Source: an uncultured Chloroflexia bacterium (lineage in GTDB: Bacteria > Chloroflexota > Limnocylindria > Limnocylindrales > CSP1-4). Taken from it: a DNA stretch of 64,000 nt. Where the stretch lies: contig CAVVNQ010000003.1 of the NCBI GenBank assembly GCA_963749705.1, forward strand, positions 448,001-512,000, written 5' to 3'. Each line of letters starts with the position of its first letter. Position 1 is the first letter of the stretch. The notes beneath the pieces are model-generated. The model saw only the letters and a list, made by a program, of their open reading frames with translations. It searched no databases and was not told the origin of the DNA. The position numbers were made by a program, and so were the translations under genes. Below, in pieces: positions 50,235 to 62,177 of this stretch.

Positions 50235-52358
50235 ATGGCCGTGCAGACCTCCCGCGTGACCCGGCATCGGGTCCGCCGAACACGCCGGCTGCTCGCGCTC
50301 GCGATCGCTGCCGCGTTGCTCGCGACCGCGTCGCTCGTCAGGGCGCCGGCCGCGACCCTGGCCGCGAGCGACCCGATCATTGCGCTCGAGCCGGTGGTGA
50401 GCGGGCTCGACCACCCGGTGCTGGTCGCGAATGCCGGCGATGCTCGCCTGTTCGTCGTCGAGCAGACCGGTCGGATCCGGATCGTCAGCGGCGGAAGCCT
50501 GCTGGCCACCCCGTTCCTCGACCTGTCCAGCCAGATCTCCAGTGGCAGCGAACGCGGGCTGCTGGGGCTGGCCTTCCACCCCGGGTATGCGACCAACGGC
50601 CGCTTCTTCGTCTACTACACCCGGTCCGACGGCGACATCCAGGTGTCCGAGTTTGCGCGCTCCGCCGGCGATGCCAACCGCGCCGCCGCGGGCTCCGAGC
50701 GGCCGATCCTGCGCATCGAGCATTCCACCTACAGCAACCACAACGGCGGCATGCTCGCGTTCGGGCCGGATGGGTACCTGTATATCGGGACGGGTGATGG
50801 CGGCGGTGGCGGGGACCCGCTGGGCAGCGGCCAGAACATCAACAGCCGCCTGGGCAAGCTGCTCCGCATCGATGTCGACACCGCCAGCCCGTCCATCGCG
50901 TACGACATCCCCCCGACGAACCCGTTCGTGGGGACCGCGGGCGACGACCTGGTCTGGTCGTACGGGTTGCGCAATCCATGGCGGTTCTCGTTCGACCGGG
51001 CCACCGACGACCTGTGGATCGGGGACGTGGGCCAGGGCGCCTGGGAGGAGGTCGATGTCGCGCGAAGCGCGGCCGGCCGCGGCCGGGGGCTCAACTTCGG
51101 CTGGAACGTTCTCGAGGGCGACCACTGCTACAACGCGTCGACGTGCGTGCGGACGGGCAAGACGGCGCCGATTGCCGAGTATCCCCATGGAACCGGGGAT
51201 TGTGCGATCAGCGGCGGGTACGTCTACCGCGGGTCCGTGAGTCCGCTGCTGGTTGGTCGCTACCTGTTCGGCGACTACTGCAGCGGCCGGATCTGGAGCC
51301 TGGTGGCGTCCGGCCCATCGCCACAGGCCGAGGTGCTGCTGACGGACACCAGCCTCCAGATCAGCTCGTTCGGCGAGGACGCGGCGGGCGAGGTCTACGT
51401 CGTGGCGCTGGGCGGCACGATCTACCACGTCGTCGAGACGCACGTCGTCCGCCGCTCCGGCTCCGATCGCTACGGGACCGCGGCCGAGATCAGCGCGGCG
51501 GCGTTCGCCCCCGGGGTACCGGTGGCCTACGTGGCGACCGGCCAGAACTATCCCGACGCGATCGCCGGCGGTCCGGCCGCCGCCGCCGAGGGCGGCCCGG
51601 TCCTGCTCGTCCGATCGGACGCGATCCCGGCCGCCACCGCGGCCGAGCTCAACCGCCTCAAGCCCGGCCACATCGTCGTGCTGGGCGGGCCGTCGGCCGT
51701 CTCGGCCGGCGTGGCCAGTGCGCTCGCGGGCTACACCGCGGGGACCGTCGTCCGCCGCTCGGGACCCGATCGCTACGCGACGGCGGCCGAGATCAGCGCG
51801 GCGGCGTTCGCACCCGGGCGTGCCGGTGGCCTACGTGGCGACCGGCCAGAACTATCCCGACGCGATCGCCGGCGGTCCGGCCGCCGCCGCCGAGGGCGGC
51901 CCGGTCCTGCTCGTCCGATCGGACGCGATCCCGGCCGCCACCGCGGCCGAGCTCAACCGCCTCAAGCCCGGCCACATCGTCGTGCTGGGCGGGCCGTCGG
52001 CCGTCTCGGCCGGCGTGGCCAGTGCGCTCGCGGGCTACACCGCGGGGACCGTCGTCCGCCGCTCGGGACTCCGATCGCTACGCGACGGCGGCCGAGATCA
52101 GCGCGGCGGCGTTCGCCCCCGGGCGTGCCGGTGGCCTACGTGGCGACCGGCCAGAACTATCCCGACGCGATCGCCGGTGGTCCGGCCGCCGCCGCCGAGG
52201 GCGGCCCGGTCCTGCTCGTCCGATCGGACGCGATCCCGGCCGCCACCGCGGCCGAGCTCAACCGCCTCAAGCCCGGCCACATCGTCGTGCTGGGCGGGCC
52301 GTCGGCCGTCTCGGCCGGCGTGGCCAGTGCGCTCGCGGGCTACACCGCGGGGACCTAG
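50235..52358 (+). CDS. Secreted PQQ-dependent glucose/sorbosone dehydrogenase with three CW_binding_2 repeats (three +1 shifts within the repeats)
   Basis: Signal peptide; ERGLLGLAFHP, NHNGG, GDGG, GLRNPWRFSFD, GGYVYRG; repeats SGxDRYxTAA...ATGQNYPDA...GGPSAVS. Confidence 0.88.
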   Translation: MAVQTSRVTRHRVRRTRRLLALAIAAALLATASLVRAPAATLAASDPIIALEPVVSGLDHPVLVANAGDARLFVVEQTGRIRIVSGGSLLATPFLDLSSQISSGSERGLLGLAFHPGYATNGRFFVYYTRSDGDIQVSEFARSAGDANRAAAGSERPILRIEHSTYSNHNGGMLAFGPDGYLYIGTGDGGGGGDPLGSGQNINSRLGKLLRIDVDTASPSIAYDIPPTNPFVGTAGDDLVWSYGLRNPWRFSFDRATDDLWIGDVGQGAWEEVDVARSAAGRGRGLNFGWNVLEGDHCYNASTCVRTGKTAPIAEYPHGTGDCAISGGYVYRGSVSPLLVGRYLFGDYCSGRIWSLVASGPSPQAEVLLTDTSLQISSFGEDAAGEVYVVALGGTIYHVVETHVVRRSGSDRYGTAAEISAAAFAPGVPVAYVATGQNYPDAIAGGPAAAAEGGPVLLVRSDAIPAATAAELNRLKPGHIVVLGGPSAVSAGVASALAGYTAGTVVRRSGPDRYATAAEISAAAFAPGRAGGLRGDRPELSRRDRRRSGRRRRGRPGPARPIGRDPGRHRGRAQPPQARPHRRAGRAVGRLGRRGQCARGLHRGDRRPPLGTPIATRRRPRSARRRSPPGVPVAYVATGQNYPDAIAGGPAAAAEGGPVLLVRSDAIPAATAAELNRLKPGHIVVLGGPSAVSAGVASALAGYTAGT
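51444..52355 (+). repeat. Three tandem near-identical units of about 303 bp (CW_binding_2)
   Basis: Units start at 51444, 51747 and 52051 (303, 304 and 305 bp). Confidence 0.95.
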
Positions 52359-52589
52359 CGTTCCGGCGGCGGGCGGTTCGCGCGCCCGCTGCCCGCCGAC
52401 TCTGCCCGATCGTGCCGATCAGGATGCCCGGTCGGTGCGCTCGGAGGGCACAGACGGGACTTGTCCCCGCCCTGCCCCGGTCGGACAATCGGACGGCGGT
52501 CCGGGAGCCAGGCCGGCTGCCGCGAGCCGTCGAAGGCCGGTGAGGCGCGGTGCCGCCCCGGCGCCACTACGCCGCATGGTGAGCGCGTG

Positions 52590-53513
52590 ATGACGGAACG
52601 CAGCCAGCTCGAACAGCAGCGCCGGGAGATCCGCAGGCAGCACGGCACTCTGGCCGCCAACGAGCCGATCGCGCCGGCCGCGGCCGTGTTCGACGCTGCC
52701 GCGCGGGAGCAGACGCCGGGTCGCGGTGGTGGCCCAGCCGTCGGGCGCGCGATCGACGGTCTGCATACGAGCGCCGGCAACGCCGCGGTCGCCCGCCTGT
52801 TCGAGGGGGCCACGACGCATCGCCACCAGGAAGGCCAGGCGACGGCTCGGGCCGGCCACGCCGGCACCACGGACCGCCCCGGCCACGCCAGCAGCACGGA
52901 CCGGCCCGTGGTCCAGGCAAGCGCCGCCGGCGAGGCCGCGCCTGCGGACGAGATGTCCAACGTGTCGGACGCGACGCTGGTGGCGCTGGCCGCGGGTCCC
53001 CCGAAGCACGGCCCGAGCTGGACGCACGTCGGCCCGCCGTCCAACACCACCTATGCCGTGTCCGGGACGCTCCGCGATGCGGCCAACACGGTCGCGGCGC
53101 GCACCGAGGCGGGCTCGGTGACCACGACACCGTCGAGCGATGCGGACGTGTGGACGCCCGACGGCGGCAATCCGCAGGTGATCGGGGCACGGGTCACGGT
53201 CGACCAGGTGGAGGAGCTGCCGACCTGGGCGGACGAGTCGCAGGCGACGGCGAACCAGCAGGCGGAGTGGAATCGGTTTCATGGCGCGATCACCACCCAC
53301 GAGGCCGGCCACGTGTCGATCGACAAGACGTCGTACGCCAACGCGCACTCGAAGATGGTCGGCAAGTCCCCCGAGAGCGCGGACAAGGCCCTCGACACGG
53401 TCGAGGCGACCGCGACGACCGACAACGCGACGTACGACACGAAGACCGACCACGGCCTCAACCAGGGAACGCGCATCAACCCCAACATCGACGAGGTGAC
53501 CAAGGTCCCCTGA
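52590..53513 (+). CDS. DUF922-type Zn metallopeptidase with eCIS-effector-like N-terminal leader
   Basis: LPTW...WNRF..AITTHEAGH, YDTKTDHGLNQG; leader LHTSAGNAAVARL...VVQ. Confidence 0.7.
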   Translation: MTERSQLEQQRREIRRQHGTLAANEPIAPAAAVFDAAAREQTPGRGGGPAVGRAIDGLHTSAGNAAVARLFEGATTHRHQEGQATARAGHAGTTDRPGHASSTDRPVVQASAAGEAAPADEMSNVSDATLVALAAGPPKHGPSWTHVGPPSNTTYAVSGTLRDAANTVAARTEAGSVTTTPSSDADVWTPDGGNPQVIGARVTVDQVEELPTWADESQATANQQAEWNRFHGAITTHEAGHVSIDKTSYANAHSKMVGKSPESADKALDTVEATATTDNATYDTKTDHGLNQGTRINPNIDEVTKVP

Positions 53514-54762: not shown

Positions 54763-55560
54763 GTGAGTCATGACCCCGCCGCCGTCGTCTCGTTGCGCAC
54801 GATCCGGTTATGGCTGCCGCACCAGCACGGCGCGTGGGCGATGCTGGCATTGCCGGTCCTCGTGGGCATCGCTGCCAGCCGGTTCGTGCCGTCCCAGCTG
54901 CTGCTGACGGGCACGGCCGTTGCCGCCTACCTGGCATCGGCGACCATCCAGGCCTGGCTCCGGGCACGTCGCCGGCCGTCGTTCGTGCCATCGATCGTCG
55001 TGTATGCCGCCACGACCGCCGTGCTCGGCATCCCGCTGCTGGTGCTCGAGCCGCGCCTCCTGATCGTCGTCGTGGTGCTCGTCCCGGCCGGCGCGTTGAC
55101 GCTCGCCGCCGCGCGGCCCGGCACGCCACGCGAGCTGGCCCTGAGCCTCGCCCATGTCGTCCAGGCGTCGATGCTGACCCCTGCCGCGATGCTCCTCGCC
55201 GGCGAGGCCGGTGCAAGCCTGCTCGTGGCGGCAACCGCGATCGTCGCCGTCGAGATGACCGGATCCGCGCTGGCGGTGCGTTCGGTGATCCGGGAGCGGG
55301 ACAACGCGGGCTTCGCGGTCCGATCGGTGGGCTTCCATCTCGTCGTCACGCTCGTGGCGGCGGCAACCCTGCCACCGGCCTACGCGCTGCTCGGCGGGCT
55401 GCTCACCGTGCGGGCCGCGGCGCTGCCGGTCGCGCGCCGCCGGCTCGCCGCCACCCGCTGGAAGCTGCGCCCGATCCACGTCGGACTGATCGAGGCGGCG
55501 GCATCGATCGCCACCGTGGTCGTCGTGCTGGCGGTTCCGCTCGTGACGACGACGCGCTGA
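54763..55560 (+). CDS. YwiC-like membrane protein
   Basis: WLPHQHGAWAML.LP, VRSVIRER, IHVGLIE. Confidence 0.85.
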   Translation: MSHDPAAVVSLRTIRLWLPHQHGAWAMLALPVLVGIAASRFVPSQLLLTGTAVAAYLASATIQAWLRARRRPSFVPSIVVYAATTAVLGIPLLVLEPRLLIVVVVLVPAGALTLAAARPGTPRELALSLAHVVQASMLTPAAMLLAGEAGASLLVAATAIVAVEMTGSALAVRSVIRERDNAGFAVRSVGFHLVVTLVAAATLPPAYALLGGLLTVRAAALPVARRRLAATRWKLRPIHVGLIEAAASIATVVVVLAVPLVTTTR

Positions 55561-55673
55561 CCGGCGCCACGGAGCGAGCTGGATCGCGTCGGCGTCGGCC
55601 GCGACCCACGACGGGATCGGCGCCCATCGGGCGCCGCGATCCGGTTCCGGCGCCGCCGCGTCATAATCCGCCG

Positions 55674-58600
55674 ATGCAGGGTGAGCTGACCTCGGACCGA
55701 CAGGGCACGCGTCCGGGCGTGGTCGATGGCGGCGCGCTCGACCCCCTGGTGGGGCCGCAGTGCTCGCTGGCCGTCCAGCTCCGCCGCACCACGGGCGCCG
55801 TCATCGGCCGCAGCGCCGAGCTCGACGCGATCGCGCAGGTGCTCCACGAGGCGACCGGCCGCCTGGCGGCGCTGACGCTCGAGGGCGAGCCCGGGATCGG
55901 CAAGACGCGGTTGCTGCTGGAGGCCGCCGAGCTTGCCGCGACCGCCGGGTTCACGTGCGTCGCGATCACCGCGGACGAGGAGATCCGCGGGCCGTTCCTG
56001 CTCGCGCGCAGCCTGTTTGCCTCGAGCGCCATCCGCGACTGCATCGCGGGGACCCCTGCCGAGGCGGCGGTCAGCCGCGTGGTCGAGGCCATCTCGGGCC
56101 GCGACGAGCGCGGGTTCGAGGCGCTGTCACCAGATGCCAAGCTGCTCCGCGCCTTCGACCTCGGGGGCGTCGCGATCTCGTCGCTCGCCGGGATCCGGCC
56201 GCTGGCGCTGCTCATCGACGACGTCCAATGGGCCGACGACGACACCCTGCGGCTGCTCCGGTACGTCGTCCGCAGCGATGCAGACCGGCCGGTGTTCCTG
56301 TTCCTGACGATCCGGCCGGACGAGTTCGCGACGGTCACCGAGGCCGTCAACTTCGTTGCCGACATGGAGCGCATGGGTCTCGTCCGGCGCCTGCGGCCCG
56401 GACGGTTCGGGTCGGTCGAGACGGCGGAGCTCCTCAAGCGGATCCTCGGCGGTCGCGTCGAGGCGGCATCGGCGGCCGCGATGCACGCCCAGTCGGAGGG
56501 GGTGCCGTTCATCGTCGAGGAGCTGGCCCGGACGCACCGGGAGGCCGGCACCCTCCAGCAGATCGACGGCCAGTGGCGGCTCGGCCGGAACGCTGCGCGG
56601 CTGGTGCCATCGGCGGTGCGGACGCTGATCGATCGCCGGGCCGCGCGGCTGCCCGCCCGGACGCGCGCCGCGCTGGGGGACGCCGCGATCCTCGGTCGCA
56701 GCTTCAGCCTCCGGGACCTGCGCGCGATCCGCGCCCGGATCGGCGAGGGCGATGTCGGTGCACCGGGTGCCGCGGTGCCCGATCCCGGACCTGCCGGATC
56801 CGCCGATGGCGTCGATCCGCTCGCGGATGATCTCGCCCCCGCCGTTCGGGCCGGCCTGCTGCTGCCGCAGTCGCAGGGCGAGCCGGCGGACTACACGTTC
56901 ACCCACGAGCAGGTCCGGCAGTTCGCCGCCAACCAGCGCTCGGTGGCCCGTCGCCGCCAGGTCCACGCCGCGGTCGTCGACCTGCTGCTCGAGGGTGGCG
57001 AACCTGCCCCCGCCGGCCTGCCGATGCTCGCCCAGCACGCGCTTGCCGCCGGCGACACGGCGCGCGCGGCGCGGTTCTCGATCGACGCCGCGGCGTCGGC
57101 GCTTGCGTCGAACGCGCCGGAGGAGGCGCTCCGGCTCGTCGAGCAGGCGCTCCCGGTCGTCTCGACGCCCGCCGACCGCCGGGTCCTGCTCGCGACCCGT
57201 GACGACGCGTTTGCCGCGCTCCGGCGGACCAGCGAGCGGCTCGAGGGGCTGACCGAGCTGGCGGCGCTCGCGGAAGCGATGCGCGATCCCACCGTGGAGC
57301 TCGACGTCCAGCTCCGGCGCGCATCGGCGCTGCGCATGGATCATGACGAGGACGCCGCCGCGGACCTGGCTCGCCGCGTCCGTACCCGGGCGGCCGAGCG
57401 GGGCGACGCGGCGACCGAGCTGCGGGCAACCCTGGAGCTTGGCCAGGCGATCCAGCGGAGCCCGGTCGGTGAGTCGTTCGGCGGCGCCGCGGTCGAGATC
57501 GACCTCGAAGCGGCGGAGGAGGCCTACCGGCACGCGATCGCGCTCGCGGAGCAGCTCCACGACGACCGAAGCCTGGCTGCCGCCCTGCGCGAGATCGGCA
57601 CGATCGATTTCGCTCGTGGGCGCGCGTGGTTCTCGGGCGAGGTCCGGGCGGGCCGGGCGAATGAGCTGGTCGCGATGCTGTCGTCTGGCGTGAGCATCGA
57701 GGACATGGTCATGTCCACGCCGATCGGGCCGCTGCTCACGGAGGCCACCCAGGTCCTTGAGCGAGCGCTGGGCATCTTCGAGCGGCTGGGTGATCGAACC
57801 GGCGTGATGTCGACGGTCATCGCCATGGCCTACACCCAGTACGGCCCGGTCATGCATTTCTCGTCCTCGGCGCGCCACCTCGAGGAGATCCGGCGCGTGA
57901 CGAGCCGCATGTCCGAGCTCGTCACCGAGAGCGAACGCGCTCGCCTCGACCTCCAGATGCTGTATGGCGTCCACGTGTACTCGCGGGCCAAGGTCGTACC
58001 CGACCTCGCATTGACCCGAGGCGAGGACGCCCACCGGGAGGCCAAGCTCCAGGGCGACCGGTCGGTCGAGTTCCTCGCCGCGGGCGGCGTGGCGCTCAGC
58101 CTGCTCGACCTGGGCGATATCGACGGGGCGGAGCGGTGGCTCGGCCTGGCTGCATCGGCCGCGTCGATGGCGCCCTCCCGGACCCGGGCACGCCAGCTCG
58201 AGATGTGGCGCGGGATGGTCCGGGCCGGCGCCGGCGACGTCGACGGCATGCGCGGGCATCTCGAGCGCGCGGTGGCGATGGCGACCGAAAGCGGCAGGGC
58301 GTCCGCGCGCTGCGAGGCCCTGGCTCGCCTGGCCCTCGAGGCGGCGTCACTCGTTGCGCGGCAGGTACCCGGCGAGTCGGATGCCGCGGGGAATGACGGC
58401 CCGGATCCGGCGTTGCTCGAGCTCATCGAGCGGGCCGCCACCCAGGCCAACGAGCTGCTGCCGCTGCTGCCGGGGCACGCGGCATGGGGAGCCCAGGCCG
58501 ACGCGGCGCTGGCGACCGTGGCCCTCGCGCGCGGTGACGACCAAGCGGCCGTGATGGCCGGCGGCGCGGCCCTCGGAGCGCTCCAGGCCGGGCTCCACGA

Positions 58601-59057
58601 GGACGCCAACCTCGAGATCGTGATCCCGGCAGCCCGGGCGCTGTTCGCCGGCGCTCCCCCCGAGGTCCAGGGATCGGTCCGGCAGTTCCTCCGGTCCACG
58701 CTTTCGCGGATCGCGCAGGGCACGGCGGACGAGGCGATTCGCGTCCGATGGCTCACCGGACCGATCGGGCGCCCGCTCGCGGAGCTGGTTGGCCCGCTCG
58801 ATGAACCGGCGCCATCGACCCTGGCCCCGGAGCCGGCCGCGTCCGATGGCGCCCCCGTCCTCGATGATGCGGAGCGGCACGTGCTCCAGCTGCTGACGGA
58901 GGGCCGGACCAACGCCGAGATCGCGGCCGAGCTCGCGATCGCGGAGCCCGAGGTGGCGCAGCGGCTGGCGCGGCTGCAGGCCCGCCTGGGGACCACGAGC
59001 CGCGCCGAGGCCACCTCGCTGGCGTTCCGCGGGTTCGCCTCGGTGGGGTCGCACTGA
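55674..59057 (+). CDS. STAND (AAA_16) ATPase-TPR-LuxR-like HTH regulator
   Basis: GEPGIGKT, LIDDVQWAD, SEGVPFIVEEL, YTFTHEQVR; C-terminal ERHVLQLLTEGRTNAEIAAEL. Confidence 0.9.
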   Translation: MQGELTSDRQGTRPGVVDGGALDPLVGPQCSLAVQLRRTTGAVIGRSAELDAIAQVLHEATGRLAALTLEGEPGIGKTRLLLEAAELAATAGFTCVAITADEEIRGPFLLARSLFASSAIRDCIAGTPAEAAVSRVVEAISGRDERGFEALSPDAKLLRAFDLGGVAISSLAGIRPLALLIDDVQWADDDTLRLLRYVVRSDADRPVFLFLTIRPDEFATVTEAVNFVADMERMGLVRRLRPGRFGSVETAELLKRILGGRVEAASAAAMHAQSEGVPFIVEELARTHREAGTLQQIDGQWRLGRNAARLVPSAVRTLIDRRAARLPARTRAALGDAAILGRSFSLRDLRAIRARIGEGDVGAPGAAVPDPGPAGSADGVDPLADDLAPAVRAGLLLPQSQGEPADYTFTHEQVRQFAANQRSVARRRQVHAAVVDLLLEGGEPAPAGLPMLAQHALAAGDTARAARFSIDAAASALASNAPEEALRLVEQALPVVSTPADRRVLLATRDDAFAALRRTSERLEGLTELAALAEAMRDPTVELDVQLRRASALRMDHDEDAAADLARRVRTRAAERGDAATELRATLELGQAIQRSPVGESFGGAAVEIDLEAAEEAYRHAIALAEQLHDDRSLAAALREIGTIDFARGRAWFSGEVRAGRANELVAMLSSGVSIEDMVMSTPIGPLLTEATQVLERALGIFERLGDRTGVMSTVIAMAYTQYGPVMHFSSSARHLEEIRRVTSRMSELVTESERARLDLQMLYGVHVYSRAKVVPDLALTRGEDAHREAKLQGDRSVEFLAAGGVALSLLDLGDIDGAERWLGLAASAASMAPSRTRARQLEMWRGMVRAGAGDVDGMRGHLERAVAMATESGRASARCEALARLALEAASLVARQVPGESDAAGNDGPDPALLELIERAATQANELLPLLPGHAAWGAQADAALATVALARGDDQAAVMAGGAALGALQAGLHEDANLEIVIPAARALFAGAPPEVQGSVRQFLRSTLSRIAQGTADEAIRVRWLTGPIGRPLAELVGPLDEPAPSTLAPEPAASDGAPVLDDAERHVLQLLTEGRTNAEIAAELAIAEPEVAQRLARLQARLGTTSRAEATSLAFRGFASVGSH

Positions 59058-59791
59058 TGGCGATCCGGGCGCGGGTCGATCGCCACAAGTGCATCGGCGC
59101 CGGCAACTGCATCACGCTCGCCCCGACCGCGTTCGACTGGCTCGCGGGCGACTACGGCAAGACCGACGTCGTGGGCGCCGACAGCGTGGACGAGGAGGTG
59201 CTTCGCGCGGCGGCGTTCTCGTGCCCCACGGCCGCGATCATCCTCGAGGACATCTCGGAGCTGCTGCCCTGGCAGCTGCGGGGCAAGGCCGGACCCGCCC
59301 GGCGAGTCCTGAAGACCTTCATGTTCACGGACATCGTGGGTTCGACGAACCTGGTCGAGGCGCTGGGCGACGAGGCGTGGGAGACGATGCTCCGATGGCA
59401 CAACACCGCGCTCCGGGAGGTGTTCTCGGCGCACGAGGGTGAGGAGATCTCGACCACCGGCGACGGGTTCTTCGTCAGCTTCGACTCCCCGGACCTCGCC
59501 GTGGCGGCGGCGGTCGCGATCCAGCGGCGGCTCGCGGAGCAGCGTTCCACGCAGGGCTTTGCGCCGCAGGTCCGGATCGGTCTCCACGCCACCGACGCGA
59601 CGCAGGTCGGCGGCGACTTCCACGGCAAGGGCGTCCACGAGGCTGCGCGGATCGCGGCGCTCGGGGGCGGGGGCGACATCGTGGCCAGCGCCACGACCGT
59701 CGGCGATGCCCAACGAACGTCCAACTCACGGAGCGCGACGCTCAAGGGCCTGACCGAGGCGATCGAGGTCGTCAACGTCGACTGGCGCTAG
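59057..59791 (+). CDS. Ferredoxin-class III adenylate/guanylate cyclase fusion
   Basis: N-terminal CIGAGNC...SCPTAAI; C-terminal FTDIVGST, TGDGFF, RIGLH, DFHGKGVHEAARI, LKG. Confidence 0.88.
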   Translation: MAIRARVDRHKCIGAGNCITLAPTAFDWLAGDYGKTDVVGADSVDEEVLRAAAFSCPTAAIILEDISELLPWQLRGKAGPARRVLKTFMFTDIVGSTNLVEALGDEAWETMLRWHNTALREVFSAHEGEEISTTGDGFFVSFDSPDLAVAAAVAIQRRLAEQRSTQGFAPQVRIGLHATDATQVGGDFHGKGVHEAARIAALGGGGDIVASATTVGDAQRTSNSRSATLKGLTEAIEVVNVDWR

Positions 59792-60312
59792 CGGCGGTCT
59801 CCGACCTCGCGCGTGACCACGATGCCGTCCTCGTCCGCGTAGAGCTCGGCCCCGGGCACGAAGGTGGCGCCGCCGAAGGTGACCGGTACGTCGACGGCTC
59901 CCGCGCCGGCCTTGGCGCTCCGCCTGGGGTTCGAGCCGAGCGCCCTGATCCCGATCGGCAGCCGGGCCAGCTCGGCGGTGTCGCGGACGCAGCCGTTGAT
60001 GACCACGCCCGCCCACCCGTGATCGACCGCCGATCTCGCGATGTTGTCGCCCATCAGCGCCGTCCGGAACGACGCGCCGCCGTCGACGACCAGCACCTGG
60101 CCGGCTCCGGGCGTCGAGAGCATCGTGCGCAGCAGGACGTTGTCCTCGAGGCAGCGGACCGTGCGGACGCGGCCGTTGAACCGGGTCCTGCCACCGAAGC
60201 CGCGGAGCTGGACCTCGCAGGAGGCGAGCTCGTCGGCGCGCTCGTCCATCAGGTCGGCGGTCGACCAGCTCGTCTCGATCCCTCGGGCTGCCCCGGTGCC
60301 TGATTCAGGCAT
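59788..60312 (-). CDS. rraA: RraA family protein (HMG aldolase/RNase E regulator)
   Basis: TADLMD, FGGRTRF.G, EDN, VLVVDGG, ALMGD, GCVRD, ADEDGIVV. Confidence 0.92.
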   Translation of the reverse strand: MPESGTGAARGIETSWSTADLMDERADELASCEVQLRGFGGRTRFNGRVRTVRCLEDNVLLRTMLSTPGAGQVLVVDGGASFRTALMGDNIARSAVDHGWAGVVINGCVRDTAELARLPIGIRALGSNPRRSAKAGAGAVDVPVTFGGATFVPGAELYADEDGIVVTREVGDRR

Positions 60313-60539: not shown

Positions 60540-61232
60540 CTACTGCGTGACGAGCCGCCCGATGAGCACGCCCGCGAGCGCCGCTGCGCCGGCGATCGCC
60601 ATCGTCTGGAGCGCCGTCCGCCAGACGGGCTCGTGACCGACGAGGCCGCGGGCGATGCCCAGCAGCGCCATCAACCCGCCGGTCACGACCAGTGACACCA
60701 GCCGCGCGGTCTCGATGTCGAACAGCGCGAACGGCACCACCGGCACGCTCGCGGCGACGAGGTCGGCGATGAACATCCAGACCGCGTGGGTCCAGGGCGA
60801 TGCGCCGACCCGCCGGGGCACGCCCAGCTCGAACGCGGCCACATAGTCGAGGAGCGCCTCGGGGTGGCGATTGAACGATGCCGCGGTCTCGCGGGCCTCG
60901 GCCTCGCTGAACCCCGTGGCACGGAGCTGCGCGGCGACGCGCTCGGCCGCCGGCGACGGGTTGGCGGCGATGCGGGTCCGCGCGCGGTCGACGAGGGCGG
61001 CGGCGCGACTGCGCTCGGAATGCACGTCGAGGTAGGTGCCGGCCATCATCGAGACCGCACCCGCGATCGCCCCTGTCGCGCCGGCGAGGAGGACGATCTG
61101 GCCGTCGTTCGTGCTCGCCGCGACGCCGAACACCAGGCCCGCGACGGAGACCGCGCCGTCCTCCATCCCGAACGCGACGTCACCGATCGAGGACAGCAGC
61201 GACGCGCGGACGCGTTGAAGGATGGAACGCAC
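60540..61232 (-). CDS. VIT1/CCC1 family transporter
   Basis: VAFGMEDGAVS, AGAVSMMAGTYL, VPVVPF. Confidence 0.88.
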   Translation of the reverse strand: MRSILQRVRASLLSSIGDVAFGMEDGAVSVAGLVFGVAASTNDGQIVLLAGATGAIAGAVSMMAGTYLDVHSERSRAAALVDRARTRIAANPSPAAERVAAQLRATGFSEAEARETAASFNRHPEALLDYVAAFELGVPRRVGASPWTHAVWMFIADLVAASVPVVPFALFDIETARLVSLVVTGGLMALLGIARGLVGHEPVWRTALQTMAIAGAAALAGVLIGRLVTQ

Positions 61233-61289: not shown

Positions 61290-62177
61290 TCAGCCGACGT
61301 CCAGCTCGATCCCTGCCGCGCGGCAATCGTCCGCGAACGCGGCCTGCGCGTCGGCGGTCGGATCCCAGCGGGTGGGGAAGCACACGATCCGATCCAGGCC
61401 GGTGTCGCGGTATTCACCGAGCGCATCGACCCGAGCCTGCCCGCCGTCGCGCATCTCCTCGTCGCTCGCATAGAGCGAGAACCGGAGGGTCGCGGGATCG
61501 CGGCCCTGGGCCTCGCACGTTGCCCGCACCTCATCGATCCGGACCCGGATCTCGGGCGCGTCCAGGAACACGAAGTTGAGCTCGTCGGCGAACCTCACGG
61601 CCAGCCCCGCGGTCGTGCGCCGGCCGTTGCCGCCCACGATCAGCGGGATGTGGGGCTGGATCCCCTTGGGCACGTTGATCGCCCCGGCCACCTGCGCGTG
61701 CTCGCCTGCGAACGTGGCCCGCCCGGGTGCGAGCATGCGGGTGATGATCTCGAGGTGGTCGGACAGCTGCGCCAGGCGTTCGGCGATGGGCGGGAAGCCG
61801 TACCCGTAGGCCAGCCACTCCTCCTCCTTCCAGCCGGCTCCGATCCCGAGCTCGAAGCGGCCTCCCGAGATGACATCGATCGTCGAGGTGAGCTTCGCCG
61901 TCAAGCCCGGGTTGCGGAACCCGGTGCACACCACCATGTGGCCCAGCCGCACGCGCCTCGTTGCCATCGCCAGCGCGGCCAGCGTCGTGAACGACTCGAA
62001 CGTGATCTCGTCGGTCGGATCGGGCACCGTGTGGAAGTGGTCGAACACCCACAGCGACTCGAACCCCAGCCCTTCGGCGTGCACCGCGAGCTCGAGGGTG
62101 CGGGCCCAGGCGGCCCCGGCGTCCCAGCCGTCATATTCGCCCTTCCAGCCCTGGGGCGCCATCAGCCCGACCTTCAT
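61290..62177 (-). CDS. LLM-class F420-dependent oxidoreductase (TIGR03560-like)
   Basis: PQGW, FESLWVFDHFH, RNPGLTAK..TIDVISGGR..LGIGAGW, VGGNG. Confidence 0.9.
   Translation of the reverse strand: MKVGLMAPQGWKGEYDGWDAGAAWARTLELAVHAEGLGFESLWVFDHFHTVPDPTDEITFESFTTLAALAMATRRVRLGHMVVCTGFRNPGLTAKLTSTIDVISGGRFELGIGAGWKEEEWLAYGYGFPPIAERLAQLSDHLEIITRMLAPGRATFAGEHAQVAGAINVPKGIQPHIPLIVGGNGRRTTAGLAVRFADELNFVFLDAPEIRVRIDEVRATCEAQGRDPATLRFSLYASDEEMRDGGQARVDALGEYRDTGLDRIVCFPTRWDPTADAQAAFADDCRAAGIELDVG

Follow-up and report, generated by a model that had tools for sequence, protein, structure and literature searches.

A conserved gene pair encoding a STAND regulator and a ferredoxin–nucleotidyl cyclase fusion in uncultured Chloroflexota

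The stretch of DNA analysed here (the window) comprises 64,000 nucleotides of contig CAVVNQ010000003.1 from an uncultured Chloroflexia bacterium (assembly GCA_963749705.1, positions 448,001 to 512,000 of the forward strand). On its + strand it carries two overlapping genes, the first encoding a 1127-aa STAND regulator of the LAL/MalT type (55674..59057) and the second a 244-aa fusion of a ferredoxin domain to a nucleotidyl cyclase domain of class III (59057..59791). In the regulator, a P-loop NTPase and a winged helix are combined with predicted TPR-like helical repeats and a LuxR/GerE helix-turn-helix (HTH). We consider it very probable that the two genes work as a single functional unit, in which the cyclase is competent and the ferredoxin domain binds a cluster.

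The open reading frames (ORFs) listed for the window include a + strand open frame at 54810-59057 and the 244-aa ORF at 59057-59791. Translation of the first from the ATG at 55674 yields the 1127-aa protein, and an alignment of upstream regions showed this start codon to be conserved among relatives. The initial annotation had begun the pair at 54763, a coordinate that belongs instead to a neighbouring YwiC-family gene. It had also described the stop codon of the regulator as overlapping the start of the 244-aa ORF, and this is correct: the TGA at 59055-59057 and the ATG at 59057-59059 share one base, giving a 1-nt overlap in the sequence TGATG (59055..59059, + strand). Overlaps were found at 55 of 94 unique junctions in related loci (48 by one base, six by four bases and one of unresolved length). 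The two genes were separated by gaps of 0–34 nt at 34 junctions, and by 43 and 214 nt at two more; two junctions were open in-frame joints (L027 and L054), and at one no start codon was found.

Of 7190 candidates in a word-indexed protein search, 2904 had an E value of 0.001 or below. The 120 homologues listed were 77–91% identical to the fusion, were almost all 244 aa long, and nearly all matched both PF00211 and PF13370. They came from metagenome-assembled genomes of Chloroflexota or Candidatus Limnocylindrales, under names that included 'class 3 adenylate cyclase', '4Fe-4S domain-containing protein' and 'ferredoxin'. A draw of 41 genomes included 25 from the window's genus, of which 7 had full-length matches; the other 16, small genomes from a second family, had none. 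Across the class, 46 of 401 genomes, belonging to three families, contained a match starting at or before query residue 4; 43 of these matches reached residue 243 or beyond and three were truncated (one of the 46 genomes, G277, is flagged as unpublished). Two genomes from other classes (G545 and G679) gave full-length matches in a phylum sample of 401 genomes. A scan of one genome per species, in which one of the two patterns used also fits cyclases without a ferredoxin, gave at least 587 confirmed relatives, and the best 80 loci were kept. The ESM Atlas held one cluster, of 89 members, with the ferredoxin–cyclase architecture. In a quick tree of 78 distinct sequences, the rows labelled Actinomycetota (17, together with two labelled Chloroflexota) were split from the Chloroflexota rows with 98% SH-aLRT support, the phylum labels being those of the submitters. 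An artefactual join absent from relatives, which the initial annotation had allowed for, is at odds with this abundance of homologues of the same length.

The regulator gene accompanied the fusion gene throughout. In tblastn searches with the proteins of the window, a STAND gene of the same orientation was found directly upstream in 26 of 26 loci from the sampled genomes and in all 80 of the best per-species loci, two sets that partly overlap; the genomes G545 and G679 are left out of these counts. The synteny that the initial annotation had counted on is therefore real. Pairing persisted under both phylum labels, and at identities as low as 46% for the ferredoxin–cyclase and 40% for the STAND protein (L028). 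The pairwise divergences of the two proteins were correlated (r = 0.94 over 528 pairs), which fits co-inheritance; as shared descent alone could give such a correlation, co-evolution is unproven. No third conserved gene was detected: among stop-to-stop frames of at least 100 aa, with the two genes and their shadow frames set aside, no further cluster was present in more than 7 of the 80 loci. The flanks that were sampled were mutually unrelated, and included genes for a BBE-type oxidase, a histidine kinase, an ABC ATPase and a cold-shock protein. Every related locus that was inspected showed this architecture and this order of genes, so that neither the fusion nor the pair is a product of chance.

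The N-terminal part of the fusion is a single-cluster ferredoxin domain (residues 7-61; 59075..59239, + strand), as the initial annotation had proposed. It was matched by two Pfam families above their cut-offs, Fer4_13 over residues 7-61 with 33.1 bits (cut-off 24.5) and Fer4_15 with 28.5 bits (cut-off 22.4), and the domain alone matched the PDB ferredoxin 1rof with E 4.9e-07. The cluster motif reads C12-I-G-A15-G-N-C18 ... C56-P57, and its three cysteines are the only ones in the 244-aa protein (codons on the + strand: C12, 59090-59092; A15, 59099-59101; C18, 59108-59110; C56, 59222-59224). In an alignment with the single-cluster ferredoxins of T. maritima, D. africanus and P. furiosus, Ala15 stands at the position of the second cysteine (C-x-x-C/D-x-x-C), and C56-P57 aligns with the distal Cys-Pro. 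C12, A15, C18, C56 and P57 were invariant in alignments of 40 and of 33 sequences. The pattern CxxAxxC...CP was found in 95 of 96 unique locus sequences, the remaining one having Ser, and the alanine motif in 118 of the 120 database homologues listed, the other two having no readable motif. The motif CXXA/GXXC(X)nCP is given for [3Fe-4S] ferredoxins by Child et al. 2018 (PMC6237146), in agreement with the assignment of the cysteine pattern to the 3Fe-4S type in the initial annotation. The domain probably carries a [3Fe-4S] cluster, to judge from this pattern. The single-cluster [3Fe-4S] ferredoxins of this motif, which are redox partners of P450s in actinobacteria, and the ferredoxins of T. 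maritima and P. furiosus share with it the Fer4_13/Fer4_15 fold family, the motif spacing and the alanine at the second position. They are, however, free-standing electron carriers of 60–100 aa, whereas the 244-aa protein has such a domain joined to a signalling enzyme.

The ferredoxin and cyclase domains are joined by a conserved linker (residues 66-85; 59252..59311, + strand), which includes ELLPWQLRG. Residues E68-R75 of the linker were at least 90% conserved in the alignments of 40 and 33 sequences. The mean pairwise identity of the linker (0.78) was no lower than that of the two domains. The ferredoxin-specific residues W28 and K35 were also conserved in both alignments.

Residues 87-244 form a nucleotidyl cyclase domain of class III and of the Rv1900c/Ma1120 type (59315..59788, + strand). 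Guanylate_cyc (PF00211) matched residues 87-215 with 38.3 bits against a cut-off of 21.9, and the best NCBIfam match was the LipJ model. When the domain was compared with the PDB using phmmer, the leading matches were 1ybt (Rv1900c; E 8.6e-22) and 4wp3 (Ma1120; E 5.8e-21). AlphaFold predicted a cyclase fold over residues 82-244 with a predicted local distance difference test score (pLDDT) of about 90, and a Foldseek search with this model retrieved 4wp8 (Ma1120; TMt 0.90, root-mean-square deviation 1.3) and 1ybu (Rv1900c; TMt 0.89). Rv1900c (LipJ of M. tuberculosis; 1ybt/1ybu) and Ma1120 (M. avium; 4wp3-4wpa) are thus the best matches to residues 79-232 in both sequence and structure, although their identity to the fusion's cyclase is only about 31–35%. 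Unlike the fusion, Rv1900c bears an N-terminal alpha/beta-hydrolase domain, going by PDB molecule names. Neither protein is known to have a ferredoxin domain or a STAND partner gene.

D92 (in FTD), D136 (in GDG), R173 and R198 were invariant in the alignments of 40 and 33 sequences. When the domain is aligned with Rv1900c and Ma1120, three of these residues, D92, D136 and R198, fall on the FTD, GDG and AAR motifs. Aspartates of the D92/D136 type are the metal ligands in the class III cyclase family. The initial annotation, which had identified a class III cyclase with both metal-binding aspartates and the catalytic arginine, was accurate in this respect. The fusion's cyclase has neither the Lys/Asp pair that selects substrate in adenylyl cyclases nor the Glu/Cys-type pair of guanylyl cyclases: Ser132 occupies the adenine-selecting Lys site, where Ma1120 has Lys and Rv1900c Asn, and this position varies in the family, while the partner aspartate D187 is present here and variable in the family. 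The Rv1900c residues concerned here and at the transition-state site are N342 and H402. At the canonical Asn site the fusion has His194, a residue that was His in 94 of 96 unique sequences and Asn in one; the arginine paired with it, R198, was invariant. A non-Asn residue at this transition-state site is shared with the two solved relatives, in addition to the FTD and GDG motifs and the arginine: it is His in Rv1900c, as here, and Ala in Ma1120. Rv1900c is active with His at this site (PMC4886424), and Ma1120 is active with Ala, its change to Asn lowering activity (PMC4215837). From its residues, then, the cyclase domain looks catalytically competent.

In the STAND regulator an AAA_16 NTPase domain (residues 43-209; 55800..56300, + strand) was matched with E 2.3e-15 and 57.9 bits (Pfam cut-off 32.6). 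Its Walker A segment, G71-K77, and D182-D183 were invariant in 33 STAND sequences, as in a P-loop NTPase with Walker A and B motifs. The C-terminal LuxR/GerE HTH (residues 1066-1117; 58869..59024, + strand) was matched by Pfam GerE with E 1.6e-09, and PDB profile matches to this region were the DNA-binding domains of DevR, VraR, GerE and NarL. Between the two lies a helical-repeat, TPR-like region (residues ~424-1040; 56943..58793, + strand), delimited by helix pairs in the AlphaFold model and by Foldseek. No TPR family, TPR_MalT included, matched the 1127-aa protein in Pfam at E 0.01, and a PDB search with a profile of 33 orthologues found LuxR-type DNA-binding domains only, leaving the helical repeats unmatched. 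In the AlphaFold model of the whole regulator (mean pLDDT 81.9) the P-loop domain and a winged-helix region could be made out, together with a solenoid of helix pairs some 600 residues long, in which pLDDT was mostly 85–97. Foldseek matched the model to 6mfv (a STAND-TPR protein), the TPR domains of LGN (TMt 0.75–0.80), MalT, Apaf-1 and Avs3. A TPR-like nature of the repeats is therefore supported by the predicted structure. The initial description of the protein as AAA_16-TPR-HTH stands at both ends on Pfam evidence, and in the middle by predicted structure only, Pfam giving no match there. The protein differs from MalT/LAL STAND regulators in lacking a Pfam TPR_MalT match, and in having an obligate enzyme gene downstream.

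An exhaustive search of cluster representatives with the fusion's cyclase found 321 proteins at E ≤ 1e-30. Among the best 150 of these, the match lay at the extreme C-terminus in nearly all proteins longer than 400 aa, and Pfam assigned Guanylate_cyc to 130, TPR_12 to 54, TPR_MalT to 32, AAA_16 to 20, GerE to 11, BTAD to 9, Fer4_13 to at least 8 and Protoglobin to 1. This cyclase subfamily thus appears, from domain matches, to be typically a C-terminal module of STAND/TPR regulators. In the window the cyclase comes at that point too, but as a polypeptide of its own with an inserted ferredoxin. A clean example of the fused form is P0132, an AAA_16-GerE-cyclase protein of 1158 aa whose NTPase domain is 29% identical to that of the STAND protein in the window. 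The idea of a split-off cyclase, put forward in the initial annotation, fits these relatives, but its premise that cyclases are fused N-terminally to such regulators does not, since in the nearest relatives the cyclase is C-terminal instead. AAA_16/TPR/BTAD-cyclase proteins such as P0132 and TPR-cyclase proteins of about 650 aa carry the same cyclase subfamily at their extreme C-terminus (50–62% identity over residues ~75-244) and share the regulator architecture of the pair, but have no ferredoxin domain or gene split. We know of none that has been characterised. As a separate observation, Protoglobin was matched (E 1.8e-26) in one cyclase relative in the series P0124-P0198, which may thus couple haem-based sensing of a gas to the same output module.

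Fer4_13 was present in 10 of the 120 longer proteins listed, each of them a one-member cluster. Eight of the ten include STAND sequence, and seven of these eight are out of frame between the HTH and the start of the ferredoxin, only P0280 being clean. Out-of-frame, Arg-rich stretches were seen in P0126-P0128, P0135 and P0137. Single-ORF STAND–ferredoxin–cyclase fusions were considered as Rosetta-stone evidence for the pair and mostly rejected as apparent frameshift artefacts. At two loci, L027 (G346:C1) and L054, the STAND frame runs cleanly and without a stop into the ferredoxin–cyclase frame, giving an open frame of about 1400 aa; either the genes are naturally fused there or the assembly is wrong by one base.

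A full-text search found no paper on a soluble Fer4-type ferredoxin–cyclase or on its pairing with a STAND gene; most subscription journals lie outside that search, so that absence from the literature is unproven. Two known systems come close. In the mycobacterial cyclase/LuxR-like (Mclx) proteins Rv0386, Rv1358 and Rv2488c (PMC4452763), one functional unit brings together a class III cyclase with an AAA/NB-ARC NTPase and a LuxR HTH. There the cyclase is N-terminal and covalently fused, whereas the window encodes it behind the HTH as a polypeptide of its own that bears a ferredoxin. The pair's cyclase is also closer to Rv1900c-type domains than to those of Mclx. A cluster of 30 ferredoxin-associated membrane class IIIb adenylate cyclases from alpha- and beta-proteobacteria, among them R. 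palustris Q132R4, is described by Beltz et al. 2016 (PMC4821796). In these, as here, the ferredoxin directly precedes the class III cyclase domain; according to the same source it lies between the catalytic domain and a haem-binding, cytochrome-b-like anchor of six transmembrane helices. The fusion differs from them in being soluble, 244 aa long and STAND-paired, and in belonging to another cyclase subfamily.

We propose that the pair is an autonomous two-gene cassette, in which a MalT/LAL-type STAND transcription factor, with its TPR-like region as the sensor, is followed by a soluble ferredoxin–cyclase. The cyclase domain would dimerise and produce cyclic AMP (cAMP), possibly with a side activity towards cyclic GMP (cGMP). 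The iron–sulfur domain would report redox, oxygen, nitric oxide or iron status, and shift cyclase activity by way of the linker. The ferredoxin–cyclase would act with the STAND protein in a 1:1 ratio, replacing the covalent C-terminal cyclase of its AAA_16-TPR(-GerE)-cyclase relatives. One stimulus could then act in two ways, on transcription by way of the HTH and through a diffusible nucleotide that the genome's cyclic nucleotide monophosphate (cNMP)-binding proteins would detect. Within this scheme we infer the binding and type of the cluster, the activity and product of the enzyme, redox control and contact between the two proteins. As a whole, the mechanism of a cluster-sensing cyclase working with a STAND regulator seems to us evenly balanced between right and wrong. 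A more specific version, which we regard as rather unlikely, is that the fusion is an Fe-S-gated nucleotide cyclase, the first of its sort, serving as a detachable effector subunit of the STAND factor; the state of the [3Fe-4S] cluster would set docking onto the regulator as it oligomerises, and activation by induced proximity, so that redox or iron status and a ligand of the repeat region are combined into transcriptional and cAMP outputs.

Several observations weigh against this proposal. The ferredoxin domain was predicted with a pLDDT of 54–67 and residues 66-78 with less than 50, so that no fixed contact between the ferredoxin and the cyclase is predicted. The strict synteny indicates functional linkage, not binding, and the fused single ORFs are weak Rosetta-stone evidence because most look frameshifted. 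The product of the cyclase is unreadable from sequence, as the positions of Ser132 and D187 vary. The window contains neither a cNMP receptor nor a phosphodiesterase in linkage with the pair. Finally, the [3Fe-4S] ferredoxins of this motif appear in PMC6237146 as stable P450 electron carriers, not sensors, and as ordinary proteins that can be isolated in air. This last point also favours the main rival explanation, in which the ferredoxin would be a stable module for structure, docking or electron transport, such as a handle by which the cyclase holds on to the STAND protein, and the sole input would be a ligand at the STAND helical repeats, which would switch the cyclase on by pairing two copies of it. 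Conservation of W28, K35 and the linker E68-R75 is as expected of an interface, and the nearest relatives bear the same cyclase subfamily on TPR/STAND proteins without a ferredoxin, so that the STAND scaffold alone is a sufficient partner there. On the other hand, the three cysteines and the alanine were kept in all but one of the unique locus sequences, which argues that the cluster itself matters and not the fold alone, and the protoglobin-bearing relative shows that gas- or redox-sensing partners occur in this cyclase subfamily. We regard a purely docking or structural ferredoxin as rather unlikely.

The remaining alternatives appear less probable still. If the cyclase-like domain makes no cAMP, it could form another product, cGMP or another cyclic nucleotide, or be a nucleotide-binding regulatory domain of the STAND protein. 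Its lack of the canonical adenine-selecting Lys, with the variable Ser132 in that place, its His in place of the canonical Asn and its modest Pfam score of 38.3 bits are in keeping with this, and some mycobacterial cyclase/LuxR proteins without the canonical residues have been suggested to be nucleotide-binding regulators (PMC4452763). Both metal aspartates and both arginines are invariant, however, and the two closest solved relatives deviate in a similar way yet are active adenylyl cyclases, so we think this improbable. A role in anti-phage defence, as a STAND (Avs-like) or Pycsar type module with the cyclase as its signal-generating effector, has in its favour weak PADLOC matches to Pycsar cyclases (best E 5.5e-05), the presence of Avs3 among the Foldseek matches of the STAND protein, and the variable neighbourhoods of the cassette. 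Any class III cyclase, though, would produce PycC matches of this kind. At its C-terminus the STAND protein has a LuxR HTH in place of a nuclease or other killing domain, and no gene for a cNMP-activated effector, as the defence model calls for, accompanied the pair at the 80 loci. The tree mostly follows the phylum labels, unlike that of a freely mobile island. A defence module is accordingly very improbable. Some database entries that join the two genes contain out-of-frame text, as would be seen if the fusion or the pairing were an artefact of assembly or gene calling. But the same 244-aa ORF, with invariant motifs, occurs in many assemblies from different sources, and this explanation, already refuted, has practically no likelihood left.

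Class III cyclases are known with many sensor domains, but a soluble one with a Fer4-type iron–sulfur domain was not found described in the full-text search. In Mclx proteins the cooperation of cyclase and STAND/LuxR parts is still called unclear (PMC4452763). In the pair the two halves come as small proteins, separate but co-translated, that are conserved across two phyla of uncultured yet abundant bacteria of the soil, which opens both Fe-S control of cAMP synthesis and STAND activation of a cyclase to ordinary biochemistry. The strict pairing suggests a possible route by which redox or iron state could act on a second messenger and on gene control. If the cluster is a sensor, the cyclic-nucleotide signalling of bacteria would gain a redox or iron input; should the ferredoxin serve for docking only, the pair would still be a well-defined new architecture.

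Upstream of the regulator gene, the hexamer CATAAT (55662..55667, + strand), which resembles a -10 element, lies 6 nt before the start codon. A CATAAT/CATACT block 5–8 nt before the ATG was the sole conserved upstream sequence, being present in 27 of 27 aligned non-identical regions. One of the upstream alignments used an anchor chosen by pattern, and conservation at that anchor is by construction. Otherwise the upstream regions could not be aligned, because the neighbouring genes differ. The box is probably the -10 promoter element of a leaderless transcript covering the STAND and ferredoxin–cyclase genes, judging by its position and conservation. A simple sigma-70 scan found no full promoter upstream of the STAND gene, and the aligned loci contained no conserved operator or -35 box at a fixed distance. 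A perfect 7-bp inverted repeat with a 3-nt loop (GGCGCCC / GGGCGCC; 55619-55635, + strand) is located between the YwiC stop codon and the -10-like box; it is not followed by a run of T.

The gene just upstream of the pair encodes a YwiC-family membrane protein (54763-55560, + strand; Pfam E 1.8e-26). The initial annotation had read this neighbour as a link to anaerobiosis, but it adjoins the pair in only 1 of the 26 and 2 of the 80 loci, all closest relatives, and the argument fails because the neighbour is not conserved. The YwiC gene is a chance neighbour of the pair. YwiC, RraA, AlkZ and DUF922 were all considered as members of the system and rejected, since they accompany the pair in its nearest relatives only. 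On the downstream side, the fusion gene and a convergent RraA-like gene (59788-60312, - strand) end on overlapping stop codons (CTAG, 59788-59791), which leaves no room for a terminator between them. Further downstream are genes for a VIT1-family iron transporter (60540-61232, - strand) and a luciferase-like monooxygenase (61290-62177, - strand), both outside the clusters common to related loci.

The host genome contained 17 Guanylate_cyc and 12 cNMP_binding matches, none of the latter on the contig of the window. At G000:C8:351166-351940 (+ strand) in the same genome, a cNMP_binding match directly precedes a Guanylate_cyc match in an open frame of 1029 aa, and a second cyclase match lies about 3 kb downstream. 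Elsewhere in the window, the region 50235-52590 (+ strand) encodes a glucose/sorbosone dehydrogenase domain followed by CWB2 cell-wall-binding repeats. One repeat peptide recurs there in three frames that overlap, which points to tandem repeats that change frame or to slips in the assembly.

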